Made by a program: the position numbers and the translations under genes
In this document: piece by piece, positions 329 to 15,910 of the stretch
Layout of the letters: each line of letters opens with the position of its first letter
Numbering within the stretch: position 1 is the first letter of the stretch
Notes under the pieces: generated by a model
What the model was told of the DNA's origin: nothing
The model's input: only the letters and a program-made list of their open reading frames with translations
Database searches by the model: none
Assembly: GCA_043818055.1 (NCBI GenBank)
Contig: JBDRGF010000010.1
Span: forward strand, 1-15,910
Source of the DNA: Pseudomonadota bacterium
GTDB taxonomy: Bacteria > UBA10199 > 2-02-FULL-44-16 > JBDRGF01
Length of the DNA stretch: 15,910 nt
Reading direction: 5' to 3'

Positions 329-363
329 TTGACACAAAAGAGGTTATTGACATATGTTCATAA
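329..363 (+). promoter_or_regulatory. Sigma-70-type promoter with an overlapping palindromic operator
   Basis: TTGACA at 329-334 and a possible -10 TATGTT at 353-358. The imperfect palindrome TTATtgACATATGTtcATAA (344-363) overlaps the -10, 20 nt before the DUF134 start. Confidence 0.65.
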
Positions 364-383
364 CCCTTGAGAGGTAAAAATCA

Positions 384-731: not shown

Positions 732-748
732 AACAAGAGGAGGTATTT

Positions 749-1054
749 ATGCCAGGAGGAGATGGAACAGGACCAATGGGACAGGGATCCATGACCGGAC
801 GAGGCATGGGGGTCTGTGCGGGATATTCAATCGAAGATCGTGCAAATGTTCCGCGCAGTTTTTTTGGCGCTGGTCGTGGTGGCCGACCGTCGAGGGGCGG
901 CAGAGGACGACGATATGAAAACATCGCAAGAAATTATCCAACAACCCCCAAAGATGAAAAAAGTTATGTTCAAGGTGAGATCAAAGAACTCGAAAAAGAA
1001 CTCGATGAGATGAAAAAGTACCTTACTGATCTGCAAACTGAAGAAAAGAAATGA
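749..1054 (+). CDS. DUF5320 family protein
   Basis: N-terminal MPGGDGTGPMGQGSMTGRGMGVC, Gly/Arg-rich middle and C-terminal coiled coil. SD GAGGAGG. Confidence 0.9.
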   Translation: MPGGDGTGPMGQGSMTGRGMGVCAGYSIEDRANVPRSFFGAGRGGRPSRGGRGRRYENIARNYPTTPKDEKSYVQGEIKELEKELDEMKKYLTDLQTEEKK

Positions 1055-1062
1055 GGTGACTT

Positions 1063-1425
1063 ATGAAAATTGCAATTACGGCGACAAAAAATTCGCCAGA
1101 CGCTGAGATCGATCCACGTTTCGGACGTGCGCCCTGCTTTGCCATATACGAAACAGATACTGACACAGTGAATTTTGTAAACAACGATCAAAATTTGAAC
1201 GCAAGTAGCGGCGCTGGTATTCAGGCAGCACAAAATATTTTAGCTACAGGCGCTGAGGTTGTTATAACCGGCAATTGCGGACCAAAGGCATTCAAGACGT
1301 TAAATGCTGCTAACATTAAAATAATCGTGGGTGCTTCAGGGACGATCAAGGAAGTGGTGGAAAAATATAAAAGAGGTGAATTGAAATATACCGATTCCGC
1401 AAATGTCGAAGGACATTGGGCGTAA
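1063..1425 (+). CDS. NifB/NifX family (FeMo-cofactor-binding-like) protein
   Basis: MKIAIT...DPRFGRAPCFAIY...GAGIQAAQ...VITGNCGPKAF...NVEGHW. Confidence 0.92.
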   Translation: MKIAITATKNSPDAEIDPRFGRAPCFAIYETDTDTVNFVNNDQNLNASSGAGIQAAQNILATGAEVVITGNCGPKAFKTLNAANIKIIVGASGTIKEVVEKYKRGELKYTDSANVEGHWA

Positions 1426-1451
1426 AAAAGATGCTTTTAACAGGAGGGAAT

Positions 1452-1691
1452 ATGCCAAGAGGAGATGGAACCGGACCCATGGGTAAAGGACCAGGAACGG
1501 GTAAAAATACGGGCAGAGGTCGAGTTCAGGGAGGCCAAGGCAAAGGAGGAAGAGGTTTTGGAGGCGGCAAAGCATTGGGTCCCGGCGGCGAATGTACGTG
1601 TCCAAAGTGTGGAAATAAAACCCCGCATCAAAGAGGCGTTCCATGCACGTCAATCAAATGCCCTTCATGTGGATCGGTGATGACAAGGTAG
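1452..1691 (+). CDS. DUF5320-like protein with a C-terminal Cys-rich zinc-ribbon-like domain
   Basis: Start moved to ATG 1452 after SD CAGGAGG. MPRGDGTGPMGKGPGTG...GPGGECTCPKCG...HQRGVPCTSIKCPSCGSVMTR. Confidence 0.85.
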   Translation: MPRGDGTGPMGKGPGTGKNTGRGRVQGGQGKGGRGFGGGKALGPGGECTCPKCGNKTPHQRGVPCTSIKCPSCGSVMTR

Positions 1692-1695
1692 AAAT

Positions 1696-2541
1696 ATGAA
1701 AATAGCAATTGGAAGCGGAAAGGGCGGAACGGGCAAGACTACATTATCTGTGGGATTGGCATTAGCTTTGACAGATAAAGATATATCGGTTCATCTAATT
1801 GATTGTGATGTCGAGGAACCCAATGCCCATCTTTTCTTGAAAGTTACAAATGAGAACTCAAGGTCTGTAGATGTCTTCGTTCCCGACATCGATACAAACC
1901 TTTGCACCCTCTGCGGTGAATGTGCAAAATTTTGCCAATTCAAAGCCTTAGCTGCCATTCCAAATTCAAAGATACTTATATTTAAGGAAATGTGTCATGG
2001 TTGCGGCGGTTGCGAGATTGTCTGTCCGGAAAAAGCAATAAAAGAGGTTTTTCGTGAAGTCGGAGTGATCAAAACATCACAATCAAAAAATCTGGATTTT
2101 ACATATGGAATACTAAACATCGGCGAGGCGATGGCCACGCCTGTGATCAGGGCTTTAAAAGAGATAGTCAATCCAACAAAAACAACGATCTTTGATGCAC
2201 CACCGGGAACCGCCTGTTCATTTGTGGAAACGGTGATAGATTCTGATTATTGCATATTAGTTACTGAACCTACACCATTTGGTCTCTTCGATCTCAAAAT
2301 TGCAGTTGAGGTAGTTAAAAAAATAAACATTCCCTTCGGCGTTGTTATCAACAGATCCAATATCGGCAACAAATCAGTGACAGGTTTTTGTGAAAACAAT
2401 GCCATACCGATACTGATGCAGATACCCTACGACAAAAATGTCGCCATCGCGTATTCTAAGGGAATTCCGATAACCGATGTTGATAAAAAATACGGCAGTC
2501 AGTTATTGGATATGTTCAAAACATTAAAGGCTTCGATATGA
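1696..2541 (+). CDS. MinD-superfamily P-loop ATPase with inserted 4Fe-4S ferredoxin domain (copy 1)
   Basis: SGKGGTGKTT, DCDVEEPN, CTLCGECAKFC, CHGCGGCEIVCP, DAPPGTAC, VTEPTPFGLFDL. Confidence 0.93.
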   Translation: MKIAIGSGKGGTGKTTLSVGLALALTDKDISVHLIDCDVEEPNAHLFLKVTNENSRSVDVFVPDIDTNLCTLCGECAKFCQFKALAAIPNSKILIFKEMCHGCGGCEIVCPEKAIKEVFREVGVIKTSQSKNLDFTYGILNIGEAMATPVIRALKEIVNPTKTTIFDAPPGTACSFVETVIDSDYCILVTEPTPFGLFDLKIAVEVVKKINIPFGVVINRSNIGNKSVTGFCENNAIPILMQIPYDKNVAIAYSKGIPITDVDKKYGSQLLDMFKTLKASI

Positions 2542-3401
2542 AGGAAATCGTAATAATAAGCGGAAAAGGTGGAACAGGCAAAACAAGCATAACGGCATGT
2601 TTTGCCCATCTTGCAGACAGGACAGTTCTTGCCGATTGTGATGTTGATGCGGCAGATCTACATCTGCTTTTAGAACCAAAAACAAAGGAAAGCGGTGAAT
2701 TCAAGGCAGGCAGGGTAGCAATTATTGATAAGAAAAACTGCACACTATGTGGAGAATGTTCTATTCGTTGTCGATTTGGAGCAATAAAAACAAAGGATGA
2801 TTTTTACTATGTTGACAATATATCCTGTGAAGGGTGCAAAGTCTGTGAAATTGTCTGCCCTTCTAATGCGATAAGACTCGAAGAAAAAATAAGCGGAGAT
2901 TGGTATATTGCCAACTCTAAAAAACATCCATTCATCTATGCGTATTTAAGGCCGGGAGAAGAAAACTCAGGAAAACTGGTCTCCCTGGTCAGGAGTAAGG
3001 CTAGGGATTATGCCAAAGATAATAATATAGAGATGATAATTATAGATGGTCCTCCCGGGATCGGCTGTCCTGTTATTGCGTCTGTAGGAGGTGTAAATCT
3101 TGCATTGATCGTAACGGAGCCTACACAATCAGGGCTACATGATCTAAAAAGAATATTTGAATTGACAGAACATTTCAAGATCGCAACATGTATCTGTATT
3201 AATAAATTTGACCTGAACCTAGACGTGACAAAAGATATTGAAAAATTCTGTATGGCAAAGAACGTGAATGTGGTTGGAAGAATTCCTTATGATGTGAGCG
3301 TTACCAAAGCAATGCTGCAAGGCTTAAGCATTGTCGAATATGCTGAAACACCAGTTTCGGAAGAAATAAGAAGAATGTGGAAACGGTTATGTAATTACTA
3401 A
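2538..3401 (+). CDS. MinD-superfamily P-loop ATPase with inserted 4Fe-4S ferredoxin domain (copy 2)
   Basis: SGKGGTGKTS, DCDVDAADL, CTLCGECSIRC, CEGCKVCEIVCP, GEENSGKLV, DGPPGIGCPV. ATGA overlap with the previous gene. Confidence 0.93.
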   Translation: MKEIVIISGKGGTGKTSITACFAHLADRTVLADCDVDAADLHLLLEPKTKESGEFKAGRVAIIDKKNCTLCGECSIRCRFGAIKTKDDFYYVDNISCEGCKVCEIVCPSNAIRLEEKISGDWYIANSKKHPFIYAYLRPGEENSGKLVSLVRSKARDYAKDNNIEMIIIDGPPGIGCPVIASVGGVNLALIVTEPTQSGLHDLKRIFELTEHFKIATCICINKFDLNLDVTKDIEKFCMAKNVNVVGRIPYDVSVTKAMLQGLSIVEYAETPVSEEIRRMWKRLCNY

Positions 3402-3499
3402 ACACAGTTAGAAAAGTATTGAAGGGAATAAATAAAATGCCAACCATGGACGGCCCATATAGAAAATCACAAATTTTTATTTAACAAGGAGGAAAGACT

Positions 3500-3838
3500 A
3501 TGAAGATCGCGATACCGCTTGCAGATGGAAAACTGAGCATGCATTTCGGACACTGTGAGGAATTCGCACTGATCGAGGTGGACGAGCACCAGAAAAATAT
3601 TTTAGGCAGGGAAATTCTGACAGACCCACCCCATCAACCCGGTCTTTTGCCGGAATGGCTTGCTGAAAGAGGGGCAAATGTAATTATTGCCGGCGGCATG
3701 GGTTCACGGGCGCAGGGGCTTTTTGCAGAAAAGAACATAAAAGTAGTTGTAGGTGTAACAGATAGCGATCCCACAGCTATAGTGGAACATTATCTGAACG
3801 ATAAATTGAAGACGGGAAACAATGTGTGTGACCATTAA
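3500..3838 (+). CDS. NifB/NifX family protein (second copy)
   Basis: MKIAIP...HFGHCEEFAL...PPHQPGLLPEWL...IIAGGMGSRA...GNNVCDH. SD AAGGAGG. Confidence 0.92.
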   Translation: MKIAIPLADGKLSMHFGHCEEFALIEVDEHQKNILGREILTDPPHQPGLLPEWLAERGANVIIAGGMGSRAQGLFAEKNIKVVVGVTDSDPTAIVEHYLNDKLKTGNNVCDH

Positions 3839-3933
3839 ATATGGTTTAAACACAGTTTCGGTTTACAGGACAAAAAAAAGATGTCTCCGCTATTAGCAAT
3901 GGCGATACTCTTAGAAGAAGGGGGAAAACATAA

Positions 3934-4482
3934 ATGTCCATAATAATTCCAAGACATGTTTTTTTTACCAGAGGCGTCGGACGCCATAAGGAAAAACTGG
4001 CTTCATTTGAACTCGCTTTGAGATCTGCAGGAATATCACATTTTAATCTTGTGCGCGTTTCCAGCATCTTTCCACCACATTGCAAAATAATTCCAAGGCC
4101 AAAGGGGATCGGATTGCTGCGAAGCGGTGAGGTTGTTTATTGCGTGATGGCAGACAATTCATCCGACGAATCGGGCCAGCTTGTTTCCACATCGATAGGC
4201 CTTGCAGTACCAAATGATCATGATCGCTATGGCTATTTGAGCGAGCACCACACCCATGGCATGACGATGAAACAATGTGGCGACTACGCAGAGGACCTTG
4301 CCGCATCGATGCTCGCGACAACTCTGGGCTTAAGTGATGAAGATTGTTTAAACTATGATGAAAAAAAGAAACACTGGCGGATGATGAAGATGATCGTCAG
4401 AACGACAAACACCACACAGTCGGCGATTGGCAAAAACGGCCTTTGGACGACATGTGTTGCCGCAGCTGTATTTGTACCGTGA
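3934..4482 (+). CDS. pdaD: Pyruvoyl-dependent arginine decarboxylase
   Basis: SFELALRSAGISHFNLVRVSSIFPP (Ser-Ser self-cleavage site), YGYLSEHH, YAEDLAASMLATTLG, WTTCVAAAV. Confidence 0.92.
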   Translation: MSIIIPRHVFFTRGVGRHKEKLASFELALRSAGISHFNLVRVSSIFPPHCKIIPRPKGIGLLRSGEVVYCVMADNSSDESGQLVSTSIGLAVPNDHDRYGYLSEHHTHGMTMKQCGDYAEDLAASMLATTLGLSDEDCLNYDEKKKHWRMMKMIVRTTNTTQSAIGKNGLWTTCVAAAVFVP

Positions 4483-4560
4483 TACCTCTTAATATCCTTT
4501 TCATAGATTCGGGCATTGTTATCCTTATACAACTTCCTCAATATGTGATATCAAAGACCC

Positions 4561-5277
4561 ATGGCATATATTGCGATAGCAGGTGACGTTCACGGCGCTC
4601 TGGGCGCATTTTATGATCGCATTTCAAAGATGCAAAAGGCCGCGGATGCACCCATAGCAGCTGTATTTCAGGTGGGAGATTTCCAGATATATTCGAAAAA
4701 GAGCCAGATCGACAAGGCGGTGAGGAAATACGGCAAAGGGGAATTTCCACAGTGGTTTTGCGATCAAAGACCCGCACCGGTTCCCACATATGTGATCCTT
4801 GGGAATCACGACGACGCAGATCTTTATTATCAATACGCAGGCAAAGAGATCGTCCCCTCGCTTCACATCCTGAGACAGGGTGATGTAACTTCCATCGAAA
4901 CATGTGGAGTGACCTTAAATATAGGCGTACTCGGCGGCAACTATTCGTCGCGATACTTCGAATTCAAACCGTCGCAACTCCCTCGGGGCAGGAGACGGCA
5001 TTACACGAAGACCCATATTGAATCTTTAGCGGCAAAAACCCCCTTTGATATCCTCCTCACCCATGAGGCCCCTTTGGGATTCGTGTTTAAGCATGGGCAG
5101 GATATCGGCCGGCCGGAGATAAGCGGGCTGATATCGGCAACGAAGCCCAGGTTCGCATTTTTCGGTCATCACCATCGATGTTATGCCGGAATGATCGGAG
5201 ATACCAAAATCATCGGACTTCCCGATGCGAATGATGAGGGAGGAATTGCACTGTTTGAAGCGAGTGAGCTTTGTTGA
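4561..5277 (+). CDS. Calcineurin-like metallophosphoesterase, Dbr1 (debranching enzyme)-like
   Basis: GDVHG, GDFQ, GNHD, LLTHEAP and FGHHH metal-binding motifs in the expected order. Confidence 0.88.
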   Translation: MAYIAIAGDVHGALGAFYDRISKMQKAADAPIAAVFQVGDFQIYSKKSQIDKAVRKYGKGEFPQWFCDQRPAPVPTYVILGNHDDADLYYQYAGKEIVPSLHILRQGDVTSIETCGVTLNIGVLGGNYSSRYFEFKPSQLPRGRRRHYTKTHIESLAAKTPFDILLTHEAPLGFVFKHGQDIGRPEISGLISATKPRFAFFGHHHRCYAGMIGDTKIIGLPDANDEGGIALFEASELC

Positions 5278-5293
5278 GGGGGAAAATAAAATG

Positions 5294-5326
5294 AAAAAAG
5301 CCCAGGGGAAAATTCACCGGGCTTTT
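5294..5326. terminator. Probable bidirectional intrinsic terminator
   Basis: AAAAAAGCCCaGGgGAA-AA-TTCaCCGGGCTTTT hairpin with A/T tracts, between convergent genes. Confidence 0.7.
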
Positions 5327-5350
5327 GGGAAAAACATTTTAAGAACGTGC

Positions 5351-6100
5351 TTAGAAATGCCAGCCTAACATTCCCATAAGGTTAAACTGTGTCTTTGTGC
5401 CACTTTTTGTGATTTTAACACTCTGTGGGCCTGTAGTAGTTGTGATTGTTTTTGTAAAACCTTTCTGAAAGATTACGGCTTCTGTTACGTCAAGACCGAC
5501 AAAGAGCCCCTTCCAGATGAACATCTCGATGCCAGCGCCAAAACCAATGCCGCCGCCAACTGCCCCTGCCTTGTTTGCATTTGTAGGGGCATTTACAAAT
5601 ACGGCATGGCCAAGACCGCCCAATTTAACGTAGGGGATGAACTTGACCATATTCGGCTGCCATGAGGCGCGTGTAAAATACGGAAGTGTTGCTTTTGCAT
5701 AAATGCCAAAATCTAGTGCATGTTCTCTGGCATTTTCAATAAGGAATGTATTTTGTGGATAAGTATTGCCGCCATAATTTGGACTTTGTTGATTGATATT
5801 GTTAGGGTCACCAGTTTGACCTGTTGCTGTAGCATACGTGATCTGTAACATCGGACCGATCCAGTCAGCAATATCCCAGCCAAAAGCAAGGCCAAAGGAC
5901 GGGATGAATGTTCCGTCGAATTTGCGATCATAGACGCTATGCTTATCATTCGTGACCTGCATCATGCCGCCTGTGGCCAAAATGTACGGCCCTTTATGCC
6001 AGCCCTTATCCGGGAATGGAGGCGACTTGGCTTGAGCAATGCCGGAGAACATCACAGCCAGCACGAACGTCACAACAAAACCGACCAAAACTTTTTTCAT
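5351..6100 (-). CDS. Outer-membrane beta-barrel protein (putative)
   Basis: Signal peptide ending AQA, alternating amphipathic strands (PYVKLGGLG, GIGFGAGIEMFI), and a C-terminal aromatic BAM-type signal (MLGWHF). Confidence 0.75.
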   Translation of the reverse strand: MKKVLVGFVVTFVLAVMFSGIAQAKSPPFPDKGWHKGPYILATGGMMQVTNDKHSVYDRKFDGTFIPSFGLAFGWDIADWIGPMLQITYATATGQTGDPNNINQQSPNYGGNTYPQNTFLIENAREHALDFGIYAKATLPYFTRASWQPNMVKFIPYVKLGGLGHAVFVNAPTNANKAGAVGGGIGFGAGIEMFIWKGLFVGLDVTEAVIFQKGFTKTITTTTGPQSVKITKSGTKTQFNLMGMLGWHF

Positions 6101-6200
6101 ATTTCCCCCTTTTTTGGTTTAAATTTCAAAAGCTTATGCTTTGCTATCAAATAAAAAACAATTGGTCAATTTGAAAATTGTTTTCTATTTTTGAAAGATT

Positions 6201-7505
6201 TCACCTGTAAATTGGTGATATTTTTTTAATTGATGGAACAGTGAAAACGGAGAACTTAGGAGGCTGTATCCCCCTCAGATTTGTTCCGAGTGCGTCTTTT
6301 ACGACATAGCAAAAATGAGTTGGTGTGTAATCTGTAATTTCGAATTTGTTATGTTCATTAGGTGTAAATACACCTCCTATAAATTCATAAGAAACCTCCT
6401 GAGCTTGAACAATGTAATTCGAAGTTCCAATAGAATTTTCAAATTCCACCTTCCCTTTTGCAATACTGCTGCATCCTGACAATGTAGAACCTGGTGTATT
6501 ACCACTAAGAATTTCAATTTGTTTAACATTGTAAGCTCTAAATTTATTCACCAATAGTTCATATTCATATCCCGCATGCGCAACAAGTTTAGGCATAGTT
6601 TCAAGATCCACACCATCCACCTTATCAACATTCGTAATGCTCTTGCCTCCCATGTTGAGATCGCCGGTCATGGCGGTCTGGCCGGAGACGAGGTTGTTCA
6701 CTATGGTTGTGATATTGGCATCGCTAGCTGCACGCGTCGTCGCTTCATTTGTTATCGCTATTTGTAATCCTGTATCCGCAGCTATCCTGTCATCTCGCTC
6801 CTGTTTAGTCTCCAGCCTTACCGTTGAAATCGCAGCATCCAGGCTGTCCATGTTTCCCTGCAAGGTGTTCTGTCCGGCGCCGTATGCCGGCGTTGGACGA
6901 ATGCCTATCATCGTCGCCTGAACAGGGTCGCGATAGAAACTCACCATGTCGCTTTGAAATACCAGCTCCGATTTATCCTTGCCTCCTGTGATCTCATCGA
7001 TCAGTTCATCCTTTGCGTTTGCTGAGAGGTGATTGTATTCCACTGCACCTTTTGCAATAGAGCTCGCCGTCACGCCCCCTTCCATAACACCGATCGCGTA
7101 TTGCGAATAATATGAGAATGGTGCTGCACCGAAGGGATCGGGTCCATAAGCTGGATATCCCACAAATTCCACTTCTAATCTCGGATCCAACGATGGCTTT
7201 AGCACATCAGCAGGTATCCCGTTCATCTTTGCACCTGTATCCACTGAGACTCCTGCTCCGATTGAAGCAACGGTATTTCCGTTCAAAATGTTCACTGTCT
7301 GCTTCTCTGAATATAGCAGGACATTGTTGATGTCGTATATTCGAAAGATAACATCGATCGGACCGTCATCGAGAAGATTTCCTCCTCCATCCGTTACATC
7401 TGCGTTGAAATAGATGTAGGGCGGTATTGTTTCAGACGCGAAACTCACTGTTGCGATCAGCAGCATCATTGCTGCCATCAATGTTGTGATTGTTTTTCTC
7501 TTCAT
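6201..7505 (-). CDS. Secreted tail-fibre-like adhesin (putative)
   Basis: Signal peptide (SFA). N-terminal domain ...VIFRIYD...LYSEKQTVNILNG...IG, then SIAKGAV, a coiled coil ERDDRIAAD/EATTRAASD, and shaft motifs MTGDLNMGGKSITNV and VDGVDL. SD GAGGAGG. Confidence 0.65.
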   Translation of the reverse strand: MKRKTITTLMAAMMLLIATVSFASETIPPYIYFNADVTDGGGNLLDDGPIDVIFRIYDINNVLLYSEKQTVNILNGNTVASIGAGVSVDTGAKMNGIPADVLKPSLDPRLEVEFVGYPAYGPDPFGAAPFSYYSQYAIGVMEGGVTASSIAKGAVEYNHLSANAKDELIDEITGGKDKSELVFQSDMVSFYRDPVQATMIGIRPTPAYGAGQNTLQGNMDSLDAAISTVRLETKQERDDRIAADTGLQIAITNEATTRAASDANITTIVNNLVSGQTAMTGDLNMGGKSITNVDKVDGVDLETMPKLVAHAGYEYELLVNKFRAYNVKQIEILSGNTPGSTLSGCSSIAKGKVEFENSIGTSNYIVQAQEVSYEFIGGVFTPNEHNKFEITDYTPTHFCYVVKDALGTNLRGIQPPKFSVFTVPSIKKISPIYR

Positions 7506-7534
7506 TTTACCCTCCTCAGTTTAGGTTTTAAAAT

Positions 7535-7608
7535 CGCATGTAGTGGAAACCATCTTTCACTTCATGGCTGACGTGCCAGGTTGTGCGTTATATCATGCTA
7601 CATGCGCC
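7535..7608. repeat. Heptamer inverted-repeat cassette B
   Basis: CGCATGTAG (7535-7543) ... CATGCTACATGCG (7594-7606). Confidence 0.8.
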
Positions 7609-7615
7609 CTTGTTC

Positions 7616-8335
7616 TTATTTATTCGCCAATGTCTTCCCTGCTCCACCAAAACTTATCCGGGCAGGCTTTCTGTCGCCTTCTTCTACCAGTCTTACTTTC
7701 GTCTCTGAGCTATATCCCGTGACCGTGCTCTCTAATTTGAACGTATGCCATGTGTTCGAAAGTGCCGTAGGCTCATATGAAAGCTCTCCCTTATCTGCGC
7801 TCAGCGAAAAAAGAGCTGCATTGTTTTCGGGATTTGTAAGGTCTGTTTCGACGCCATCGACAACATCCTTGATTATTACCTCATCCGATAGCTCGGAGAT
7901 TATTTTTAGATTTATGCGACCGTTTTCTATAATAGAATTCGGGATCATATTCGCTACGATAGGCACGCGTTTGAGTGTTACAGAGGCATCGTTCATTTTT
8001 CCACAATGAACAGCAACCAGGCTTTCACCTCTTTTTACGATTCTATTGGAATTGTCTATAGCAAGCAGTTCGACGTGACGATCATCGCCGCATGGAATGT
8101 CACGAATCACTCCATCTTGTGTTCCATACGGAAAGACTGCTTCGATAGGCGACTCAATTCCTTCACCCGTCACTATTATCTTAAACTCTTTGATATCTGT
8201 CGTAGGCTGGGCTTTGGTATTCGTTACCTTCAGTGAAAGACCTCCGCCTCCTTCTCCACCAGTGCCGCTGCTTGTGCAACTGGAGATCAGCAGCAGCAAG
8301 CCCACTATCAAAGTTATATCTCTTTTTCTATTCAT
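7616..8335 (-). CDS. Lipoprotein, beta-rich, function unknown
   Basis: Lipobox LLISSC followed by a Gly/Ser linker. SD GAGGAGG. Confidence 0.8.
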   Translation of the reverse strand: MNRKRDITLIVGLLLLISSCTSSGTGGEGGGGLSLKVTNTKAQPTTDIKEFKIIVTGEGIESPIEAVFPYGTQDGVIRDIPCGDDRHVELLAIDNSNRIVKRGESLVAVHCGKMNDASVTLKRVPIVANMIPNSIIENGRINLKIISELSDEVIIKDVVDGVETDLTNPENNAALFSLSADKGELSYEPTALSNTWHTFKLESTVTGYSSETKVRLVEEGDRKPARISFGGAGKTLANK

Positions 8336-8362
8336 GCATCCCTCCTCGGTTTAAGTTCTAAA

Positions 8363-8570
8363 GGCGCATGTAGCATGTGGCATGTAGTATGTAGTAAAAA
8401 CCCTTTGTACCTTATGCATAACGTGCCAGGTTTAACCTTATATGTTGGTATCACTTTCATCTTCTTTCTTACCCCTCCTATCCTCCTCTTATAAAGGGGA
8501 GGGAATTTTTTAGAACTTGCTTTTCCCTACATGCTACATGCTACATGCTACATGCCACATGCTACATGCT
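8363..8570. repeat. Heptamer inverted-repeat cassette C
   Basis: 4 units GYATGTR at 8366-8393 followed by GTAAAAACC. 6 units YACATGC at 8528-8569. Confidence 0.92.
8471..8505. repeat. REP-like purine/pyrimidine hairpin inside cassette C
   Basis: ACCCCTCCTATCCTCCTCTT-ATA-AAGGGGAGGGAA. Confidence 0.6.
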
Positions 8571-8576
8571 GAGTTT

Positions 8577-11063
8577 TTATTCCTCAAACACCCCCACATC
8601 CACTGTCCCTACAGATTGCGGACGAGATTTGTAGTTGTAATCCTTGAGCACTTGTCCTTCAGGTTCAGTGGCGGCATAAAATCCGTCGTTGATGCCGTCG
8701 TTAGCTGAGCCGTCTGAGACGAGGTGATAATTCGCATCTATCATAGTTGTAGGCGTGTCGTTTCTGCGGACTATATTTCCTGAGACTGCCGATTTGCCAA
8801 AGCTAAACACTGTCGTGGTATAGTTGCTCCCGTTGCAGTTTCGTACCAGCATTGTTGCGCTTGAGGTCGGTGATTTCAAAAAGAGGTTGTTTTTAACGTT
8901 CTTTGTAGGCTCAGTGCCTTGGCAGCTTAAGGGATAGCTCATCCCCGTGCTGCCGCCCGCGTCAACGAACAAAAATGTTACAAATACATTGTTCACGAGC
9001 ACAGGATCTGATGAATCGACAATCAGGCCGTTTAGTACGCTGGTATTCTTTGACGACTGGGCATTCAGAGTATTATTTGCAATGATTAAATCCGTTTTGG
9101 ATTTTGTTACCCTGATCGCCGTCTGCGAATACGCGCTGCCTGCATCTATTATATTGTTGGTGATCGTTGCCTTGGAAAGATTTGCAAGATACGCGCCCTG
9201 GCTGAATGTGCCGGCATCTGTCGTATGGCTGCCGCCTTCGAATTTGTTGGCTGAAAGTGTTAGCTCCATAGCTCCATCTGCCCAGAAGGCTGTGGTCTGC
9301 AGTAGAGTTGGATTGCCTTTTATCGTGCAGTTCTTAAAAGTCTTTTTACCTGTACCCTGCAGCGAGACAGTCTTTTGTCCATCGATTGAAGCTGTCGAGT
9401 TTGCTGTGTTTTCGATGTGGAAGCCGTCGAACAGGATATCGTCGAGCGAGCCGATAAGAAGTGTTATATCGGAATCGGTTCTCTTTAATGTGGTTTTGTT
9501 AGTGCTGCGATATTCGCGCGCGGTGAAGTTCGAGTTAAATCCGCCGAACATTTTGACGCCAGCCTGCCACGTGATGCCGCTCATGTCGTAATCGCCTGTG
9601 GCAACTACGAGCGGGACGTTGTTTAGTTTTGCCTTTCCCAAGCCCGTTGCGAAGGTTTTTAGTGGTGCATCCTTTGTGCCTCGTGCACTGTCTGAACCGG
9701 CTGCCTCAACGAAAACAGCAAACTGTTCAGTCTGCGCCATATTATCCGCGCCAAATGTCGCCCAAATGGCCGCTCCGAGAGATTCATCGCTATCATCAAG
9801 GTCGCAGTCTTTAACAACTCCATCAGCATCATCGTCCGTAGATGAATGAGCTACACCTGTATCTGGAACATATGGACAAACATCTGTTGAATTTAACTCT
9901 GTATCTCCATCGATATTATCATCACAAACATCGCCAGTCCCGTCTGTATCTATATCTGACTGGAATGGGTTTGCTTTGAGAGGACAGTTATCAGTTGCAA
10001 GCACGCCATCGTTATCGGCATCGGCATCACACACATCGCCGATCTTATCTCCATCGACATCTGATTGATCGGTGTTCTGAACGATCGGGCAATTATCCAG
10101 ATTGTCATTTATAGTATCGGCATCGGAATCTTTAGAGAGTGGGTTGTAACCCTTCGTCACCTCGTCGCCATCTCCCAAACCGTCACCATCTGTGTCGGCC
10201 TTCATGGGGTCTGTGCCTCGGTTTGTTTCATCCGTGTTCGTGAGTCCATCTCCGTCGGGGTCGTTCGAGCAAATATCTCCCACGCCATCCTTATCCTGAT
10301 CGGCCTGATCGGAGTTTGCTGTTGAGGGACAGTTGTCCTTGCCATCGTTCAAACCGTCGCCATCGCTGTCCGCGTTTCTGGGGTCGGTATTCTGTAGTGT
10401 TTCAGCATCATTCTTCACGCCGTCGCCATCGATATCATCATCCTGATTATCGCCGATGCCGTCGCCATCCATATCACCCCACTCTGTTGCGAGCATGGGG
10501 AAGAGGTCAAACCCATCCTGGACGCCATCGCCGTCAGAATCGACCTTTGCAGGATCACAGCTGTTTTCTATTTCGGAGATGTTGAACATCTTGTCGCCAT
10601 CGGCATCCATGTCATAGCTGTAAGTGCCTGACACAAGATCCTGGCCTGTGACGTATGGCACATACTGCCCGGCAATCATGAGATCGCCTGCCGCGATTGA
10701 ACCTACCTCCTTCGACTGCGTCGTTGTTGCTGTTGCGCGATACCAGACTTCAATCTTGAGATAGACGTTTTCTGTGGGTAGATCTGCAGAGGGCTCGAAC
10801 GAGAATGCATATTTGCCCTCCTTATATTCGCCTACGATTCTAGATGAAAGCTCCTGATCGTTAGCAGGATCGACTCCCTTGACCGCAGCACCGGTATTTG
10901 CAACCAGCTTTGCCGCAACTATCGCTTCACCACTAAGATCGGTGATCCGCTTTGGAAACTGCGGATCGAGCTTGACGTCGAGCTTGCTCGTTCCACCCCC
11001 GCCGCAGCTTATAAGTGCTATTAGTAGCAGACTCGTCATTAGTGTGGTTGTTTTTATTCTCAT
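8577..11063 (-). CDS. Lipoprotein with thrombospondin type-3-like Ca-binding repeats and a C-terminal right-handed beta-helix domain
   Basis: Start moved to ATG 11063 (SD AGGAGG at 11069-11074), because the ORF-track extension is translated heptamer. Lipobox ALISC. Many DxDGDG / DNCP...NxDQxDxDxDGxGDxC repeats, then VFVEAAGSDSARGTKDAPLKT and ITNNII/IANNTL/LVNNVF rungs, ending DVGVFE. Confidence 0.88.
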   Translation of the reverse strand: MRIKTTTLMTSLLLIALISCGGGGTSKLDVKLDPQFPKRITDLSGEAIVAAKLVANTGAAVKGVDPANDQELSSRIVGEYKEGKYAFSFEPSADLPTENVYLKIEVWYRATATTTQSKEVGSIAAGDLMIAGQYVPYVTGQDLVSGTYSYDMDADGDKMFNISEIENSCDPAKVDSDGDGVQDGFDLFPMLATEWGDMDGDGIGDNQDDDIDGDGVKNDAETLQNTDPRNADSDGDGLNDGKDNCPSTANSDQADQDKDGVGDICSNDPDGDGLTNTDETNRGTDPMKADTDGDGLGDGDEVTKGYNPLSKDSDADTINDNLDNCPIVQNTDQSDVDGDKIGDVCDADADNDGVLATDNCPLKANPFQSDIDTDGTGDVCDDNIDGDTELNSTDVCPYVPDTGVAHSSTDDDADGVVKDCDLDDSDESLGAAIWATFGADNMAQTEQFAVFVEAAGSDSARGTKDAPLKTFATGLGKAKLNNVPLVVATGDYDMSGITWQAGVKMFGGFNSNFTAREYRSTNKTTLKRTDSDITLLIGSLDDILFDGFHIENTANSTASIDGQKTVSLQGTGKKTFKNCTIKGNPTLLQTTAFWADGAMELTLSANKFEGGSHTTDAGTFSQGAYLANLSKATITNNIIDAGSAYSQTAIRVTKSKTDLIIANNTLNAQSSKNTSVLNGLIVDSSDPVLVNNVFVTFLFVDAGGSTGMSYPLSCQGTEPTKNVKNNLFLKSPTSSATMLVRNCNGSNYTTTVFSFGKSAVSGNIVRRNDTPTTMIDANYHLVSDGSANDGINDGFYAATEPEGQVLKDYNYKSRPQSVGTVDVGVFEE

Positions 11064-11082
11064 AAATACCTCCTGTAAAAAC

Positions 11083-11606
11083 CGCATGTAGCATGTGGCA
11101 TGTAGGCAAAACCTAATTACCTCATCCCTCATTCGCCACCTCTTAGTTTTTTTATCAAAGCGGTTGTCATCTTTGATATACCCTCCAGTTTTTCAAATAT
11201 CGGCCCGATATTTGTCCCACTGCAAAAACCCAAATCCTTTGCTATTATCAGCTGTGTCTCCAGCTCTGCTATAGATCCTCTTGATACATTCAAAAACTGA
11301 GTATATTCCTTCGCATGGAATCGCTTAAATCCCTCTGCGATATTTGATGGAATCGATATAGCCGATCTCCTCATCTGCGAACACAACCCATAAAGCTCTT
11401 CCCTGGGAAATTTCGAGGAAAGTTTGTATATGAACTTCACAACCTCTATTCCCTCCTGCCATATTTTCAATTCTTTATACGATGCAATCTTCATCTCTCT
11501 GCCTTTGCTTTTGCCTTTGCTTTTCCCTACATGCTACATGCTACATGCCACATGCTACATGCTGCCTTTGATTTTCCCTACATGCTACATGCGCCTTTTG
11601 CTTTTC
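11083..11606. mobile_element. Heptamer inverted-repeat cassette D enclosing the four-helix-bundle gene
   Basis: 3 units at 11084-11104 followed by GGCAAAACC. 5+2 units at 11528-11562 and 11579-11592. Hexamer-like (TTTGCY) repeats at 11498-11527. Mobility is inferred, not shown. Confidence 0.6.
11129..11494 (-). CDS. Four-helix-bundle protein (23S rRNA intervening-sequence protein / Avd-like family)
   Basis: SYKELKIWQ...FPREELYGLCSQMRRSAISIPSNIAEGF.R...EYTQFLNVSRGSIAELETQLIIAKDLGF. Confidence 0.95.
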   Translation of the reverse strand: MKIASYKELKIWQEGIEVVKFIYKLSSKFPREELYGLCSQMRRSAISIPSNIAEGFKRFHAKEYTQFLNVSRGSIAELETQLIIAKDLGFCSGTNIGPIFEKLEGISKMTTALIKKLRGGE

Positions 11607-11710
11607 ACAAACCGTGCCAATTTCAACATCTTTATAAATCAGCAAGTTAGAATTTGCTGCATTTAAAAAGCGTCCGATTTTTGGATTCAAGCGTCCGACA
11701 AATCGGACGC
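11604..11710 (-). promoter_or_regulatory. Sigma-54-type module with a degenerate -12, an IHF site and tandem enhancer-like palindromes
   Basis: Minus strand TTGGCACGGTTTGTGA (11620-11605). IHF consensus match AATCAG-CAAG-TTA at 11637-11649. GTCCGA sites at 11672 and 11693, the second being the perfect palindrome GCGTCCGA-CAAA-TCGGACGC. Confidence 0.65.
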
Positions 11711-11715
11711 CTTTG

Positions 11716-12186
11716 TTATCGTGCAACCAGTTCGACCCTTCTGTTTTTTCTCCAGGCGTCGGGAGTGTTCTGTGCATCGACCGGTTTTGTTTCTCCATAA
11801 GAGATAACCGCTGCGATTCTCTCCTTCGAAACTCCTTTGGACAAGAGATATGCCCTGACACTTCTGGCGCGCCGGTCTCCCAGCTCCTTGTTATAGGCCT
11901 CTGAACCTCTGTTGTCACAATGGACCTCGATGATCAGCGCTACGTCACGATTCTCGCTCAGCCATATCACATTCTGATCTAAGATTCTGGCCGCTGAGGG
12001 CATGATGCCGCTTGAGTTGGTCGCGAAATAGACAGTGCTGATGAGCTTCAACCCCTCTTCCCTTTCTGCGCGTTCATCTTCTACCGCCCTTTTGCTTGCC
12101 ACACGCGAAAAGATGCATCCGGAGATGAGCGAGATTCCGCAGATGATTATGAAGAGCACTATCCATTTGTTGTTTTTAAGTTTCAC
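11716..12186 (-). CDS. OmpA/Pal-family peptidoglycan-associated lipoprotein
   Basis: Start moved to GTG 12186 (SD AGGAGG at 12193-12198). Lipobox LISGC. VYFATNSS...HCDNRGSEAYNKELGDRRA...SYGETKP...KNRRVEL. Confidence 0.92.
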   Translation of the reverse strand: MKLKNNKWIVLFIIICGISLISGCIFSRVASKRAVEDERAEREEGLKLISTVYFATNSSGIMPSAARILDQNVIWLSENRDVALIIEVHCDNRGSEAYNKELGDRRARSVRAYLLSKGVSKERIAAVISYGETKPVDAQNTPDAWRKNRRVELVAR

Positions 12187-12202
12187 TGTTGTCCTCCTAA
12201 AA

Positions 12203-12323
12203 GCAGCATGTAGCATGTAGTAAAAACCTTTCTACCTCATGCTGCTTTTTCTTTTTGCCTTTCACTACATGCCACATGCTACATGCGCCCTTGCTTTTTC
12301 CACTACATGCTACATGCGCCTTT
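12203..12323. repeat. Heptamer inverted-repeat cassette E (gene-less counterpart of D)
   Basis: 2 units at 12206-12219 followed by GTAAAAACC. 3+2 units at 12266-12286 and 12304-12317. Confidence 0.92.
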
Positions 12324-12330
12324 GCTTTTT

Positions 12331-13575
12331 TTACTTCCCCGCCGATGTACCCAAACCGACAGTTATATCTCCTGAGCCTGATCCGCCGCCAGAAAGCCCG
12401 ATAGCAAGACCCGCCCCGAGTCCTCCCAGAAGCAGGCCGACACCCGCCCAGAATAGCGGTCGCTTATATATCGGCTTATTCATGGAATTAAAAAATGTTG
12501 CCGGGGTATCGGGGCTGATCTCTGCAACCTTGAATGTTCCCTTCTCTATGTCATGTTTTGCCTGCTCAGAGATCTTGTTCGCGAGCTTCATTAGATTTGA
12601 ATCGTAATCCCTCGAGTCTGCATTTATTCTGAAACTCACCGGCTTTTCTGCTACTGAAAAGCGGCGGTCTATCACCTGTGCCGTGACGAGATTTTGTGAC
12701 GGATTGGTCGATAGCAAAACGAGTTTATCGGCCTGCAGTAGCCCTGCGAGCCTTGAGCTCCTGGCAACTTTGCTCAATTCAACTTCATCAGCTGCATTTT
12801 CGCTCCATTTGAGCTTGCCCTTTACGCTCGCCGATTTCCCATCCTTCAACGTAACGACCTGATTAAAATGTTCGTAATGACTTGCTTTCAAAGTGATAAG
12901 GTACTCGCCAACCGGCAACTTATCGAACGAGGCTGGGGTCATCCCCTGAGATACACCGTTGATATAAAGCTCAACAGACTTTGGATTGCTCGTAATTTTG
13001 AGCTTCGCTGATCCACTTTCAAAGATTTTAGCACGCGCTTCCTCCACCCTTTTTGCCAGCGATGGCGGCAGATCTGAGCTCTCAAGATCTATATTAGGAT
13101 CTATCCTGACAATTTCAGCTGCAAGGGATGAGATGATCTCCTCTTCATTCAGAGCCTTCGCCACCAGCATCCTCAGGAGCATGGCGTCGAGCAGTTTGCC
13201 ACCTGCGCTCTGGTATCCGACCTTTCTCAGCTCTTTTATCACCTTGTCGGCAAACTTCTTTGCATCCTTATACTTGAAATTGAAATAGGCATCCTTGGCG
13301 ATATCGAGATCGTGGGAGGCTTTATCTTTGAATTCCTTCGATGTGATCACCTGATCATGATAGGCCGCGACATCTTCGACGAGCTTTTGATCGACTATCC
13401 TGCAGCAATCGCCGGAGGAAAGAAGGCCGCCAAGGTCGGATGTCACCTTGCCAAGAAATTCATCTTTCATTTCGGGATACAGGGCAACGGACGCACGGGA
13501 TGCCTCGCCCGCATGAAGAAGAAGCGGTTCGAGGACGAGAAGAAGGGCAAGTATTAAAGATATCTTTTTCATCAT
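12331..13575 (-). CDS. PEGA domain-containing exported/membrane protein
   Basis: Start moved to ATG 13575 or 13572 (MMKKISLILALL signal peptide). TPR-like helical region, PEGA motif LKITSNPKSVELYINGVSQGMTP...LPVGEYLITLK, and a C-terminal hydrophobic segment IYKRPLFWAGVG. Confidence 0.88.
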   Translation of the reverse strand: MMKKISLILALLLVLEPLLLHAGEASRASVALYPEMKDEFLGKVTSDLGGLLSSGDCCRIVDQKLVEDVAAYHDQVITSKEFKDKASHDLDIAKDAYFNFKYKDAKKFADKVIKELRKVGYQSAGGKLLDAMLLRMLVAKALNEEEIISSLAAEIVRIDPNIDLESSDLPPSLAKRVEEARAKIFESGSAKLKITSNPKSVELYINGVSQGMTPASFDKLPVGEYLITLKASHYEHFNQVVTLKDGKSASVKGKLKWSENAADEVELSKVARSSRLAGLLQADKLVLLSTNPSQNLVTAQVIDRRFSVAEKPVSFRINADSRDYDSNLMKLANKISEQAKHDIEKGTFKVAEISPDTPATFFNSMNKPIYKRPLFWAGVGLLLGGLGAGLAIGLSGGGSGSGDITVGLGTSAGK

Positions 13576-13590
13576 ATGTGAAGATAGCCT

Positions 13591-13608
13591 TAGCACAAAC
13601 CGTGCCAA
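13591..13608 (-). promoter_or_regulatory. Sigma-54 (-24/-12) promoter for the PEGA gene
   Basis: Minus strand TTGGCACGGTTTGTGCTA gives GG-N10-GC with a TGGCACG core. Confidence 0.8.
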
Positions 13609-13636
13609 AACTCCCCTCACCCTTGGAGGGCTTGTA

Positions 13637-13721
13637 AATCAATGGGATAACGATTTGTCAAGGATTAACTGACCTTTCAAACCGTCCGATTTTCGGACGT
13701 TTTAGTCTATAAAATCGGACA
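13637..13721. promoter_or_regulatory. IHF-like site and tandem enhancer-like palindromes
   Basis: AATCAA-TGGG-ATA at 13637-13649 (1 mismatch to the IHF consensus). CGTCCGA-TTT-TCGGACG at 13683-13699 and GTCTATAAAATCGGAC at 13705-13720. Confidence 0.65.
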
Positions 13722-13874
13722 ATTCCAGTTCACGCCTGGCATTTAATTTTCACCCTGTGTCAAAATTCCGACTGTAACTACATGAAATGTCAAAATAATT
13801 ACGTCAGATAATAATCAAGTGTTTTTTGTGTTAGTAAATTCAAGATGTTAAAAAGAAATCCACAACTAAAAACA

Positions 13875-13891
13875 TTGGCATGGATTATGCC
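13875..13891 (+). promoter_or_regulatory. Divergent sigma-54 (-24/-12) promoter
   Basis: TTGGCATGGATTATGCC gives GG-N10-GC, about 55 nt before ATG 13946. Confidence 0.7.
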
Positions 13892-13945
13892 ACTAACAAG
13901 GGGGAGTAGATTTTGATATTATGACTTTAAAAAAGGAGGGTTAGT

Positions 13946-14626
13946 ATGAATTACAAATCTCAAATAGTTTCTGTCGTAGTTTTGTTGGGTGCGATTCTCA
14001 TCGCTCCAGCATTGATGGCTGAAGAGATTTCCCAACCAGCCGCCCCTGCTCCGGCACCCGGTCTCGAACCTGAGGTGAATTCAGCAGCCGAAGTGCCTGT
14101 GCTAGGTGTAGAAGAAGCCCCTCAACCGATCGAGGTGCTCCAGCCTGCACAAATCATGTCGCAATCGCCTGAAACGATAGTAATCAGGTGGGATAAATCG
14201 GTCGTTTGGAAGATCCTTGAAAACCTGAGGGCGAACAACAAGCCGCAAAGAAAGCGGCTCGAGGGTGTCAAAGATGTCTCAGGCATGCAATATTCTATAA
14301 CTGCTCTGGTTAATAAGGATGTAAATCTGTTCCCGGTAACTGCACAACAAATTGCAAGCGATGCAGCGCCGGAAGATAGCGTGGATATGATGAACAAATC
14401 TGTGAGCTTCCAAAGTGATCTCATACCACATTATGAAGTCATAATAGATGTAGGCAGGCTGATTCAGCAGCTGGGTGGCAACACAAACTCATATCTGATT
14501 AAAATCAAACTTGATTATATGGGAGAGGTTTTCAAGAGAAATAAGTTCATCGATAACGTCGTCATCGCATCGGAAGAGATGAAGGTAAAGATATACTCGT
14601 CACCTGAGAGTGATTTGAAAAATTAA
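13946..14626 (+). CDS. Exported hypothetical protein with a Pro/Ala/Glu-rich linker
   Basis: SD AAGGAGG, signal peptide ending ALMA, low-complexity linker and a beta-rich C-terminal domain. Confidence 0.8.
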   Translation: MNYKSQIVSVVVLLGAILIAPALMAEEISQPAAPAPAPGLEPEVNSAAEVPVLGVEEAPQPIEVLQPAQIMSQSPETIVIRWDKSVVWKILENLRANNKPQRKRLEGVKDVSGMQYSITALVNKDVNLFPVTAQQIASDAAPEDSVDMMNKSVSFQSDLIPHYEVIIDVGRLIQQLGGNTNSYLIKIKLDYMGEVFKRNKFIDNVVIASEEMKVKIYSSPESDLKN

Positions 14627-14628
14627 AA

Positions 14629-14697
14629 GCAGCATGTAGTGTAAAATCTATTTGGTCTGGTTTTTGCCTACATACAACATGCTACATGCCACATGCG
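14629..14697. repeat. Heptamer inverted-repeat cassette F (flipped polarity)
   Basis: GCATGTA at 14632-14638. GGTTTTTGCC followed by 4 units at 14669-14696. Confidence 0.88.
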
Positions 14698-14773
14698 ATT
14701 TTTCCCTTACCTTTTGACATTTCATTTCAAAAATGCTCAAAAGCCCTGAATTCAAACAACACAGGATGAGACA

Positions 14774-15652
14774 ATGATTACTAAAACTATTTCAACACAA
14801 TTCGGGTTTATTCCGCGCGCAAGAACCGGAACAACTTATTCGCCTTCAAACAATTTCAGATTAACACATACGGGTATAAAGCCGGTTTTCCAAAACGTCA
14901 CATATGGCCAGATAGTGCAAATGGATGAAAAAGGAATATCATTATTTAATATACTTATGGAAGATGATGTCTGGACACCGGCAGCTGTCGATATAACGGA
15001 GATAAATTCAATAAGCGATCTGTATTATGAAATTCCACCAATACTGTGGGAGTTAAAACAACAACCGATAGAGGAATCCAAACTTTGCATGAAACTGATT
15101 GATCCGGATATGAATCAGATCGAAGAAGTGATTTTATTTCTTGAACAATCCATCCTGATCAATCCTTACAATCAGGATAAACTCTCAAATAAATTTGATT
15201 GCGACGTTAGAGGCCTCGTTCATCAGGCACTGCATTTCATCGGATGGTACAACTTCCTTAACAATGCAGATATCGGCCTTTCAACACTCATCAGTCATTT
15301 TCAGTTTTGCAGGGAGAAGGATTTTTCAGTCCTCTTATGGACTTTGTCATTATCCAACAGCCGCGCTAAATTTGCCTTTGCTATCGAAGCTGTGTCACGC
15401 TCAGAGGTGCTCGAAAGAATGATGTTATATCCCCCTGTCATATCAGCATTCAGCGAATTCTTAAATTCGGTAAAGGAAAATACTCCAATTGCACCCGACA
15501 TCGACAAGTTGGAGGCTATCTGTAACCGGCTGTTCGATATAAATTTCAATGTTGATAACAGGAATGACCTTGCTTTAGCTTTGTGTAAATTTTACGAAGT
15601 CATTGGGGAAGAAGAGCTAGCGAAAAAGTGGAAAAGCGAATGTAGTATGTAG
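14774..15652 (+). CDS. Hypothetical protein, alpha-helical C-terminal half
   Basis: 292-codon ORF with CAGGA upstream. No motif recognised. The stop codon lies inside a heptamer arm. Confidence 0.7.
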   Translation: MITKTISTQFGFIPRARTGTTYSPSNNFRLTHTGIKPVFQNVTYGQIVQMDEKGISLFNILMEDDVWTPAAVDITEINSISDLYYEIPPILWELKQQPIEESKLCMKLIDPDMNQIEEVILFLEQSILINPYNQDKLSNKFDCDVRGLVHQALHFIGWYNFLNNADIGLSTLISHFQFCREKDFSVLLWTLSLSNSRAKFAFAIEAVSRSEVLERMMLYPPVISAFSEFLNSVKENTPIAPDIDKLEAICNRLFDINFNVDNRNDLALALCKFYEVIGEEELAKKWKSECSM

Positions 15653-15753
15653 TAAAAACCTCACCCCCATCCGACCTCGCGGCCACCTTCCCCCATTCAT
15701 GGGGAAGGGCTTGGTTGTTGTGATTTTACCACATGCTACATGCCACATGCGCC
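15636..15753. repeat. Heptamer inverted-repeat cassette G
   Basis: GAATGTA-GTATGTA-GTAAAAACC at 15638-15660. 3 units YACATGC at 15730-15750. Confidence 0.88.
15664..15710. repeat. REP-like hairpin element inside cassette G
   Basis: ACCCCCATCCGACCTCGCGGCCA-CCTTCCCC-CATTCAT-GGGGAAGG. Confidence 0.65.
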
Positions 15754-15762
15754 TTTTTCTTT

Positions 15763-15909
15763 TTATTCTACGCTGACTATTTCGACATCGAAGTGGAGTT
15801 TTTTGCCGGCTAGTGGATGATTAAGATCGAGCGTCACGTTGTCCTTATCGATAGCTACGACCACTGCCTGAAACTCGTGCCCCTGTGCAGAACCTGTCAC
15901 GATATGACC
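15763..15909 (-). CDS. FKBP-type peptidyl-prolyl isomerase (SlyD/SlpA family), 3' end only
   Basis: Manual translation gives ...QAVVVAIDKDNVTLDLNHPLAGKKLHFDVEIVSVE*. DxNHPLAG is the family signature. No His-rich tail. Confidence 0.9.
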   Translation of the reverse strand, partial: GHIVTGSAQGHEFQAVVVAIDKDNVTLDLNHPLAGKKLHFDVEIVSVE

Positions 15910-15910
15910 C

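Follow-up and report, generated by a model that had tools for sequence, protein, structure and literature searches.

Heptamer cassettes in the window and across the genome

In this study, we analyzed a 15,910-nt stretch of DNA (the window) that makes up contig JBDRGF010000010.1 (C10) of a 2.93-Mb genome that is 93.6% complete (GCA_043818055.1, a Pseudomonadota bacterium placed in UBA10199 by GTDB). It carries a set of short cassettes in which tandem heptamers, GCATGTR in one arm and YACATGC in the other, face each other across variable cargo, and one cassette encloses a gene of the 23S rRNA intervening-sequence protein (IVP) family. The first-pass annotation had described six facing pairs and a solo arm with about 40 units in total, and all of them were located. 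There were 12 GCATGTR and 24 YACATGC units, that is 36 exact units against 4.53 ± 2.22 by chance (36 or more in 0 of 200 shuffles), and approximately 41 once one mismatch was allowed. The array-free stretch placed at 180-7500 was also confirmed, with no exact unit in 176-7535, but the proposed maximum of seven units per arm was too high, the longest arm in the window having six. The features are as follows:

162-175, + strand: solo arm of two units
7530..7611: gene-less cassette with one unit per arm (arms 7536-7542 and 7599-7605)
8360..8576: gene-less cassette of 4 + 6 units (arms 8366-8393 and 8528-8569)
11084..11104, + strand: arm of 3 units downstream of the IVP gene
11129..11494, - strand: intact four-helix-bundle gene of 121 aa (23S_rRNA_IVP / TIGR02436, by profile match)
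11528..11592, - strand: tandem arms of 5 and 2 units (11528-11562 and 11579-11592), located upstream of the IVP gene
12200..12323: gene-less cassette in which one side has an additional arm in tandem (arms 12206-12219 and 12266-12286 + 12304-12317)
14626..14702: gene-less cassette of the minimal type (arms 14632-14638 and 14669-14696)
15632..15757: cassette with a degenerate left arm (arms 15638-15651 and 15730-15750)

The genome-wide count that had been proposed revealed that the window samples a family of about 200 arms. Arrays of at least two GCATGTR units numbered 170 on 64 contigs, and a relaxed unit, G(C/T)AT(G/A)T(A/G), gave 201 arms; 112 of them faced a partner at a distance of up to 500 bp, making 56 pairs. 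Spacer length was 26-31 bp in 33 of the 56 pairs (exactly 29 bp in 21) and 73-78 bp in nine. Arm length was capped at four units: 67 arms had two units, 42 had three and 86 had four, and five or more were found in 6 of 201. A further G followed all 86 four-unit arms, and GT followed 56 of them; thus, such an arm presents five cores at 7-nt spacing. The minimal element is about 85 bp long. Most paired copies were gene-less, and among spacers of at least 140 bp gene cargo was present in two pairs, one with the IVP gene and one (C69:1193-1588) with an unrelated open reading frame (ORF) of about 85 aa. The conserved cargo motif suggested previously (TGGCACG) did not hold up, as it occurred in just 1 of the 56 paired cassettes.

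The 73-78-bp spacers mostly held a hairpin of a GC-rich family whose inverted clusters border the DUF559 gene of the genome (C73:10600-11500). The cargo of the window cassette 15632..15757 is also such a hairpin (15660-15712). This family has 46 pattern matches, 24 of them within 90 bp of an arm, and together with the DUF559 gene it is a second, separate repeat-plus-protein pair.

GCATGTR was one of at least 12 unit families in the genome. Mapping with 14 hand-defined families identified 468 arms, compared with 55 in the reversed genome. Among 84 facing neighbors within 200 bp, 77 shared a family and seven combined different families (about 14% would be the same by chance); five more same-family pairs, all from one family, had the opposite facing. 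Since facing neighbors share a family, the matched two-arm cassette is the unit of spread. Cassettes also nest in one another.

The IVP gene, its loci and its homologues

The enclosed protein matched PF05635 (E 1.4e-36, 125.4 bits; cut-off 33.8) and TIGR02436 (E 3.5e-34, 117.3 bits; cut-off 24), and is thus a full-length member of the family to which it had been assigned. Its AlphaFold model (pLDDT 95) consists of four helices. In a Foldseek search the closest solved relative was XCC0516 (2GSC; TM 0.89, rmsd 1.0), whose entry contains five chains and which is described as a homopentamer (PMC4990558). By analogy with 2GSC, the IVP protein likely forms a five-subunit ring. Avd, the accessory protein of diversity-generating retroelements (4DWL, 8UBE), shares the fold but was more distant (4DWL: TM 0.77 at 10% identity), and the score against the Avd model NF033474 was far below its cut-off (22.7 vs 80 bits). 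Avd is itself an RNA-binding pentamer, in which all five protomers contact one RNA stem-loop, and it is not thought to do chemistry (10.1101/2023.10.23.563531); three other reports contributed nothing beyond the Avd homology (PMC2996986, PMC3543383, PMC10053308). Unlike Avd, the IVP gene had no reverse transcriptase gene among the 10 neighboring ORFs scanned.

We also looked for a dedicated catalytic partner elsewhere in the genome, and rejected all candidates. The two reverse transcriptases, presumably one group II intron-like and one Abi-like, lie on other contigs (C30:78-1482 and C109:1715-3251), and neither they nor the Y1 transposases nor a GxxExxY fragment had mapped family arms around them; in particular, no mapped arms were found in the flanks of the two Y1_Tnp matches. 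No transposase was found as cargo in the 56 pairs, and the genome-wide search, which covered Y1 transposases only, was made in this 93.6% complete assembly.

Five TIGR02436 loci were identified in the genome, all with arms and each with a different unit, which makes them natural controls for one another:

Window: GCATGTR arms, gene intact
C33: TAGCGNN arms, gene intact
C159: AGAAGYY arms, gene with an internal stop
C33, second locus: arms of the 8-mer TGTWKAAG, gene broken
C76: CGTGAAG arm, locus cut by the contig end, one arm visible

Each of these five units formed 26-189 arrays of at least two units across the genome. Several unit families therefore each have a gene-bearing copy, and at least eight further families were found without an IVP gene in the assembly; the count of at least 12 families stands against five IVP loci, two of them interrupted and one cut by the contig end. 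A wobble code with a fixed partner was considered and rejected: variation in the window family was confined to C/T and A/G, whereas other families vary by transversions.

The 80 best loci of GTDB were combined with the window. At 59 of these 81 loci, inverted arrays of at least four related units stood on each side of the gene, compared with 17 in the direct-orientation control and none of 81 after shuffling. The prediction that homologues carry flanking inverted tandem arrays, here of 7- or 8-mers, was therefore borne out, and the same layout surrounds homologues in many phyla. In the homologue arms five units were most frequent (55 of 134, two mismatches allowed). A G core (97% in the best-aligned column) was common to all families, mostly as AGT or CGT. 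The IVP gene was also found on plasmids (41 of 72,556 records) and on viral contigs, where 40 loci were found, six were dropped as apparent duplicates and 19 of the remaining 34 passed the inverted-array test. Some viral-contig units resemble the short tandemly repeated repetitive (STRR) heptamers of cyanobacteria. In Nostoc PCC 7120, an identical IVP protein was seen on two plasmids (L206 and L207) behind ISL3 transposase sequence and with a downstream arm only; there the gene is hitch-hiking on the insertion sequence.

These data bear on one alternative, that the arrays are ordinary heptamer microsatellites grown by slippage, which the IVP gene merely prefers or survives in. Long pure heptamer runs do exist in the genome, and tandem arm duplications were observed in the window and on C76. 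However, slippage does not account for the family-matched inverted pairs, the preferred 29-bp spacer, the sharp four-unit cap or the difference between real and shuffled homologue loci. Thus, this view is largely refuted by the pairing, cap and homologue data, and we regard it as very improbable.

Unit and protein appeared to change together. Among 64 loci with 7-mer arms of at least three units, unit distance was 0.09 at protein identities of 80% or more, 0.30 at 55-65% and 0.46-0.50 below. The expected co-variation of unit and clade was therefore present (Mantel rho 0.30, p 0.001), but the match was loose, without a 7-mer of its own for each clade. All 13 of the closest profiled homologues, with labels including Omnitrophota, Atribacterota, Syntrophorhabdaceae, Planctomycetia and other bacteria, combined NGTAYNT-type units with a loop FKR(F/Y)H at residues 56-60. 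On the other hand, some observations counted against strict pairing: the FKRFH loop was also paired with an AGAATTT-type unit (L055), and at a thiolase locus of Bacteroidota the loop is retained as AGRN or SGRN in spite of drift in the unit. Strict one-protein-one-unit specificity is contradicted by these observations and by one further genome (G232, below).

A total of 192 array matches were counted in this genome vs at most three in each of 40 relatives, which include no genome of the same family or genus. In relatives of the same order, we observed head-to-head twin four-helix-bundle genes approximately 90-150 bp apart, in up to about ten pairs per genome (L114:1501-2257 in G020; L111-L115; also G002, G004, G005, G007, G011, G017, G019, G021 and G040). 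The gap between twins is a near-perfect hairpin that holds both ribosome-binding sites, and short-period tracts (about 6 nt) lie behind the genes. This architecture differs from the heptamer-armed single gene.

Gene junctions, turnover and RNA pairing

Based on crude ORF calls, the arms were mostly located directly behind stop codons. Among 98 arms facing a gene 3' end, 65 began 4-15 nt past the stop (about 32% expected under uniform placement in the gap; p 1e-11) and 15 provided the stop, so that gene annotation is affected as well; only 2 of 96 start-facing arms lay 0-15 nt from the start. In the window, the cassette at 8360..8576 begins 7 nt past the stop of the TSP3-repeat gene and that at 14626..14702 begins 5 nt past the stop at 14626, whereas the left arm of 15632..15757 provides the stop (TAG, 15652) of a 292-aa ORF. 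The cassette at 12200..12323 has the stop of the PEGA gene on one side and the OmpA gene on the other, and the outer edge of the arm at 11084..11104 adjoins the ribosome-binding site of the TSP3-repeat gene. Several other unit families of the genome showed the same stop adjacency, which recurred in five other genomes: in 40 regions hand-picked from listed matches, it was found for 14 of the 18 arms (among 32) whose upstream stop could be mapped in G043 and for 15 of 16 mapped arms in four Omnitrophota genomes (of 32 arms, with no mapped arm from G242). In the rRNA spacer, the stretch from tRNA-Ile to tRNA-Ala is occupied by a cassette built from another unit (C126:28900-28975; tRNAs read by eye).

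The position behind stop codons may reflect targeting or the survival of harmless insertions, and both fit. In Escherichia coli, repetitive extragenic palindromes (REPs) are likewise reported to lie within 15 nt of stop codons. A role of the arms as all-frame stop signals was rejected, as 118 homologue arms contained 365 stop triplets vs 335 ± 19 in column-shuffled arms (reached in 32 of 500 shuffles) and just 10 of 92 long arms in this genome stopped three frames. The divergent promoter gap of the window had been described as spared. No exact unit lies in 13575-13946, but such gaps are not avoided genome-wide (arms in 21 of 256 divergent, 68 of 834 co-directional and 22 of 198 convergent gaps by the same ORF calls), and the idea of avoidance was rejected.

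On the rRNA contig, we also observed a further gene-less heptamer array ahead of the 23S gene (C126, about 29200-29245). The 23S rRNA gene itself (about 31290-31990) has an insertion of approximately 700 bp resembling a group I intron, which presumably encodes a LAGLIDADG-type homing endonuclease.

The paralogous gene cluster of the window allowed us to compare junctions. The surface-protein genes at 6201-13620 (PEGA, OmpA, TSP3-repeat and two unknown) occur in at least four copies with cassettes at the junctions; the paralogues lie on C46, C93 and C145, with 69-88% DNA identity in gene-length matches. Gene order is shuffled, being PEGA-OmpA-TSP3 in the window vs PEGA-TSP3-OmpA on C93. The cassette at 8360-8576 is absent from the C46 paralogue (90% aa identity), where a 32-bp gap holds two units of another heptamer, and the C46 junction equivalent to 7530-7611 carries a GTGATCG-type cassette. 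The arm that is followed by the IVP gene in the window is followed on C46 by a spacer of about 30 bp. Three OmpA paralogues (C10, C93 and C145) share a common arm type but differ in cargo, which on C93 and C145 is a GTAG-REP-like hairpin or a 28-bp spacer. Since paralogous junctions hold different cassettes or cargo, the elements turn over. Among 74 paralogue pairs, 14 had an arm behind at least one stop, one behind both, and in two more the partner had a degenerate single unit; these 14 pairs involve only eight arm-bearing genes and are not independent. The C-termini are colinear, and thus the stop usually predates the arm. In a search for empty sites elsewhere, the sole metagenome locus found was of the same strain, with 10 differences, none within cassettes.

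This turnover is relevant to a second alternative, a domesticated system in which the pentamer would be a TRAP-like host regulator that binds the arms at gene junctions and 3' ends and so adjusts termination or mRNA decay; ordinary recombination would have spread these sites. Such a role would agree with the strong conservation of the protein (10 invariant columns in an alignment of 47 IVP sequences), with the long residence at the Bacteroidota thiolase locus and with A/T-tract flanks that, as read from the sequence, resemble bidirectional terminators. It also has a precedent in Geobacter metallireducens, where 3-5 tandem 7-8-mers form opposite-strand pairs at variable distance and were proposed by Aklujkar et al. 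as 'global regulator binding sites', possibly for IHF/HU (PMC2700814); the arms of the C159 IVP gene have a unit similar to the class 3 consensus of that study, MTYCTGA. The available text and 12 of its 19 supplements made no link to four-helix-bundle genes, while the other seven may bear on this point (PMC2700814). However, junctions of 84-90% identity differ in the family that they carry or lack one altogether, a dozen families are present side by side with nesting among them, and the DUF559 hairpins pile into cassettes, as selfish elements do. We consider a domesticated system quite improbable.

A third alternative is that the cassettes are mRNA versions of rRNA intervening sequences (IVSs), with arms that would pair in the transcript and a stem that would be cut by RNase III; their function would be RNA processing or stability, and the protein a passenger or RNA chaperone. 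The inner upstream arm of the IVP cassette pairs with 11084-11106 in a predicted stem of approximately 22 bp, a long stem from terminal inverted repeats as in rRNA IVSs (z -4.8 and -5.7 on the two strands). In the S23p IVS of Coxiella burnetii, likewise, terminal inverted repeats enclose a gene of the same protein family, tandem heptamers precede the start codon, and a 28-bp stem, the length of four units, is cut by RNase III (PMC4990558). In addition, at one Bacteroidota locus the match between arms persists through drift of the unit, and the tRNA-spacer cassette lies within an rRNA operon spacer.

In contrast with the Coxiella element, however, the cassettes here lie between protein genes, the window family alone has about 200 mostly gene-less arms among at least 12 families, and the gene-less copies had no pairing signature. 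No rRNA location was found for the IVP cassette, which is flanked by protein genes; Rfam had no match anywhere in the window, and rRNA contig C126 has no IVP gene. In 34 cassettes of known transcript direction, 57 G-U vs 58 C-A pairs revealed no wobble bias, and four-unit arms were no more alike within a copy than between copies (22.35 vs 21.94 of 28, p 0.21). Spacer halves paired less within a copy than at random (7.8 vs 8.5 of 14), two small window cassettes folded weakly (z -0.3 to -2.5) and many arms were solo. Mirror covariation of arms or spacer halves and a transcribed-strand G-U bias were thus not seen in gene-less copies. Pairing, which is proven for the Coxiella IVS (PMC4990558), may occur in the gene-bearing cassette (z about -5), whereas the gene-less copies are without sign of selected pairing, and the mRNA view appears unlikely.

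A repeat-plus-protein interpretation and other features of the window

In population terms, the cassettes resemble REPIN-RAYT systems. Both have extragenic elements of about 100 bp with two conserved inverted arms and a variable spacer, in hundreds of copies per genome, a low-copy protein partner and several families per genome, with hints that one protein serves related families (10.1101/2021.07.10.451892). On the other hand, the arms here are tandem 7/8-mers rather than palindromic REPs, the enclosed protein (PF05635) is an all-helical bundle without an HUH/tyrosine site, and the IVP gene also occurs on plasmids and viral contigs, whereas RAYTs were reported absent from plasmids (10.1101/2021.07.10.451892). 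The likeness therefore does not extend to membership, as there is no HUH protein. Miniature inverted-repeat transposable elements are also short non-autonomous inverted-repeat elements beside one gene-bearing copy, but here target duplication and a transposase were lacking and the copies were mosaics rather than master clones.

Our preferred explanation, held tentatively and at slightly less than an even chance, is a REPIN/RAYT-like repeat-plus-protein system with a non-catalytic pentamer of the Avd fold. The arrays would serve as the arms, two per cassette, of small elements that appear and disappear at junctions between genes, for the most part behind stops. The IVP protein is predicted to assemble as a five-subunit ring that binds the arms and would assist the copying of gene-bearing and gene-less cassettes alike into new positions. 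One subunit may read one purine-G core every 7 nt with a loose preference for the other bases, and because of this looseness one protein could serve several unit families. The protein would act as a scaffold, as Avd does, while a host enzyme of recombination/repair or a reverse transcriptase would do the chemistry. This reading arises from the retention of period, G core and count across families, which fits a protein measuring five cores, together with the solved pentamer and the grip of Avd on its ligand without chemistry. Arm binding, the substrate (DNA or RNA), the partner enzyme, mobility and the direction of change (gain or loss) at paralogous sites all belong to this predicted part of the scheme. 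The earlier interpretation that the protein recognizes the heptamer arrays and takes part in their spreading, processing or regulation is partly supported, in that both of its genomic predictions were borne out. A bolder version, in which the system is a widespread, transposase-free class of mobile elements whose Avd-fold pentamer reads five cores per arm and recruits a host enzyme that writes arm-bounded cassettes directly behind stops and tRNA ends, seems somewhat unlikely.

Several observations weigh against a protein-driven repeat system. First, 89 of the 201 arms had no partner within 500 bp, which may reflect decay or single-arm events, and target-site duplications were not found, direct repeats of 2-8 bp being no more frequent than expected at offsets 0-17 of the 56 pairs. 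Second, no HUH, DDE or HEPN-type motif was found among the ten invariant residues, and neither reverse transcriptase of the genome is enclosed by arms. Third, an association that speaks for the system, seen in 201 Omnitrophota genomes (at least five array matches in 11 of 22 genomes with a close IVP, E<=1e-35, vs 10 of 179 without; at least ten in 5 of 22 vs 4 of 179) is inflated, since the gene's own arms are counted and related genomes are not independent. Two genomes (G150 and G210) had 23 and 19 array matches and no IVP at E<=1e-25 to the query, and G232 has a close IVP with GTGAATA arms while its expanded family is GTACATC. Finally, unit-protein co-variation could be plain linkage, and in at least seven Bacteroidota the cassette lies ahead of the same thiolase gene, a pattern more in line with long vertical residence than with movement.

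In the bolder version, protein-bearing rRNA IVSs and unexplained bacterial heptamer families would be gene-bearing and gene-less forms of one system. The IVP/S23p family is widespread among bacteria but lacks a known function, and for heptamer repeat families no protein partner is known. A demonstration of binding or mobility would explain the origin of the protein-bearing rRNA IVSs and reveal a new, transposase-free route of DNA spread, and if the protein drives insertion, this would be a new class of mobile DNA. The four-unit + G arm, the minimal element of about 85 bp and the landing zone behind stops provide a testable frame. Our full-text search, which lay outside subscription journals and in part could miss the spelling 'four-helix', found no paper joining the IVP family to dispersed heptamer cassettes; in print only pieces were found, namely the Coxiella IVS heptamers and the Geobacter paired arrays. 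To these, our results add a multi-family census in one genome, stop-codon statistics, paralogue swaps, a unit-protein correlation with exceptions and negative RNA-pairing tests.

Next to the cassettes in the window lie genes with an OmpA domain, with TSP3 repeats and with a PEGA domain, along with ORFs that match no Pfam family. Directly outside the IVP cassette, at 11606..11620 on the - strand, lies a putative sigma-54-like -24 motif, and a near copy with an intact -12 GC is found at about 13590-13610. Reading of the ORF list revealed an arm-free operon at 384-3838 with two MinD-like ATPases with ferredoxin motifs and small Gly-rich proteins. Eleven public sequencing runs contained part of the region, one of them an RNA run with 0.38 of the words. 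The end of the window (15771-15910) overlaps the end of C21, and a metagenome locus (L089) spans the join; C10 and C21 are the most arm-rich contigs of the genome, with 11 and 8 arms, respectively.

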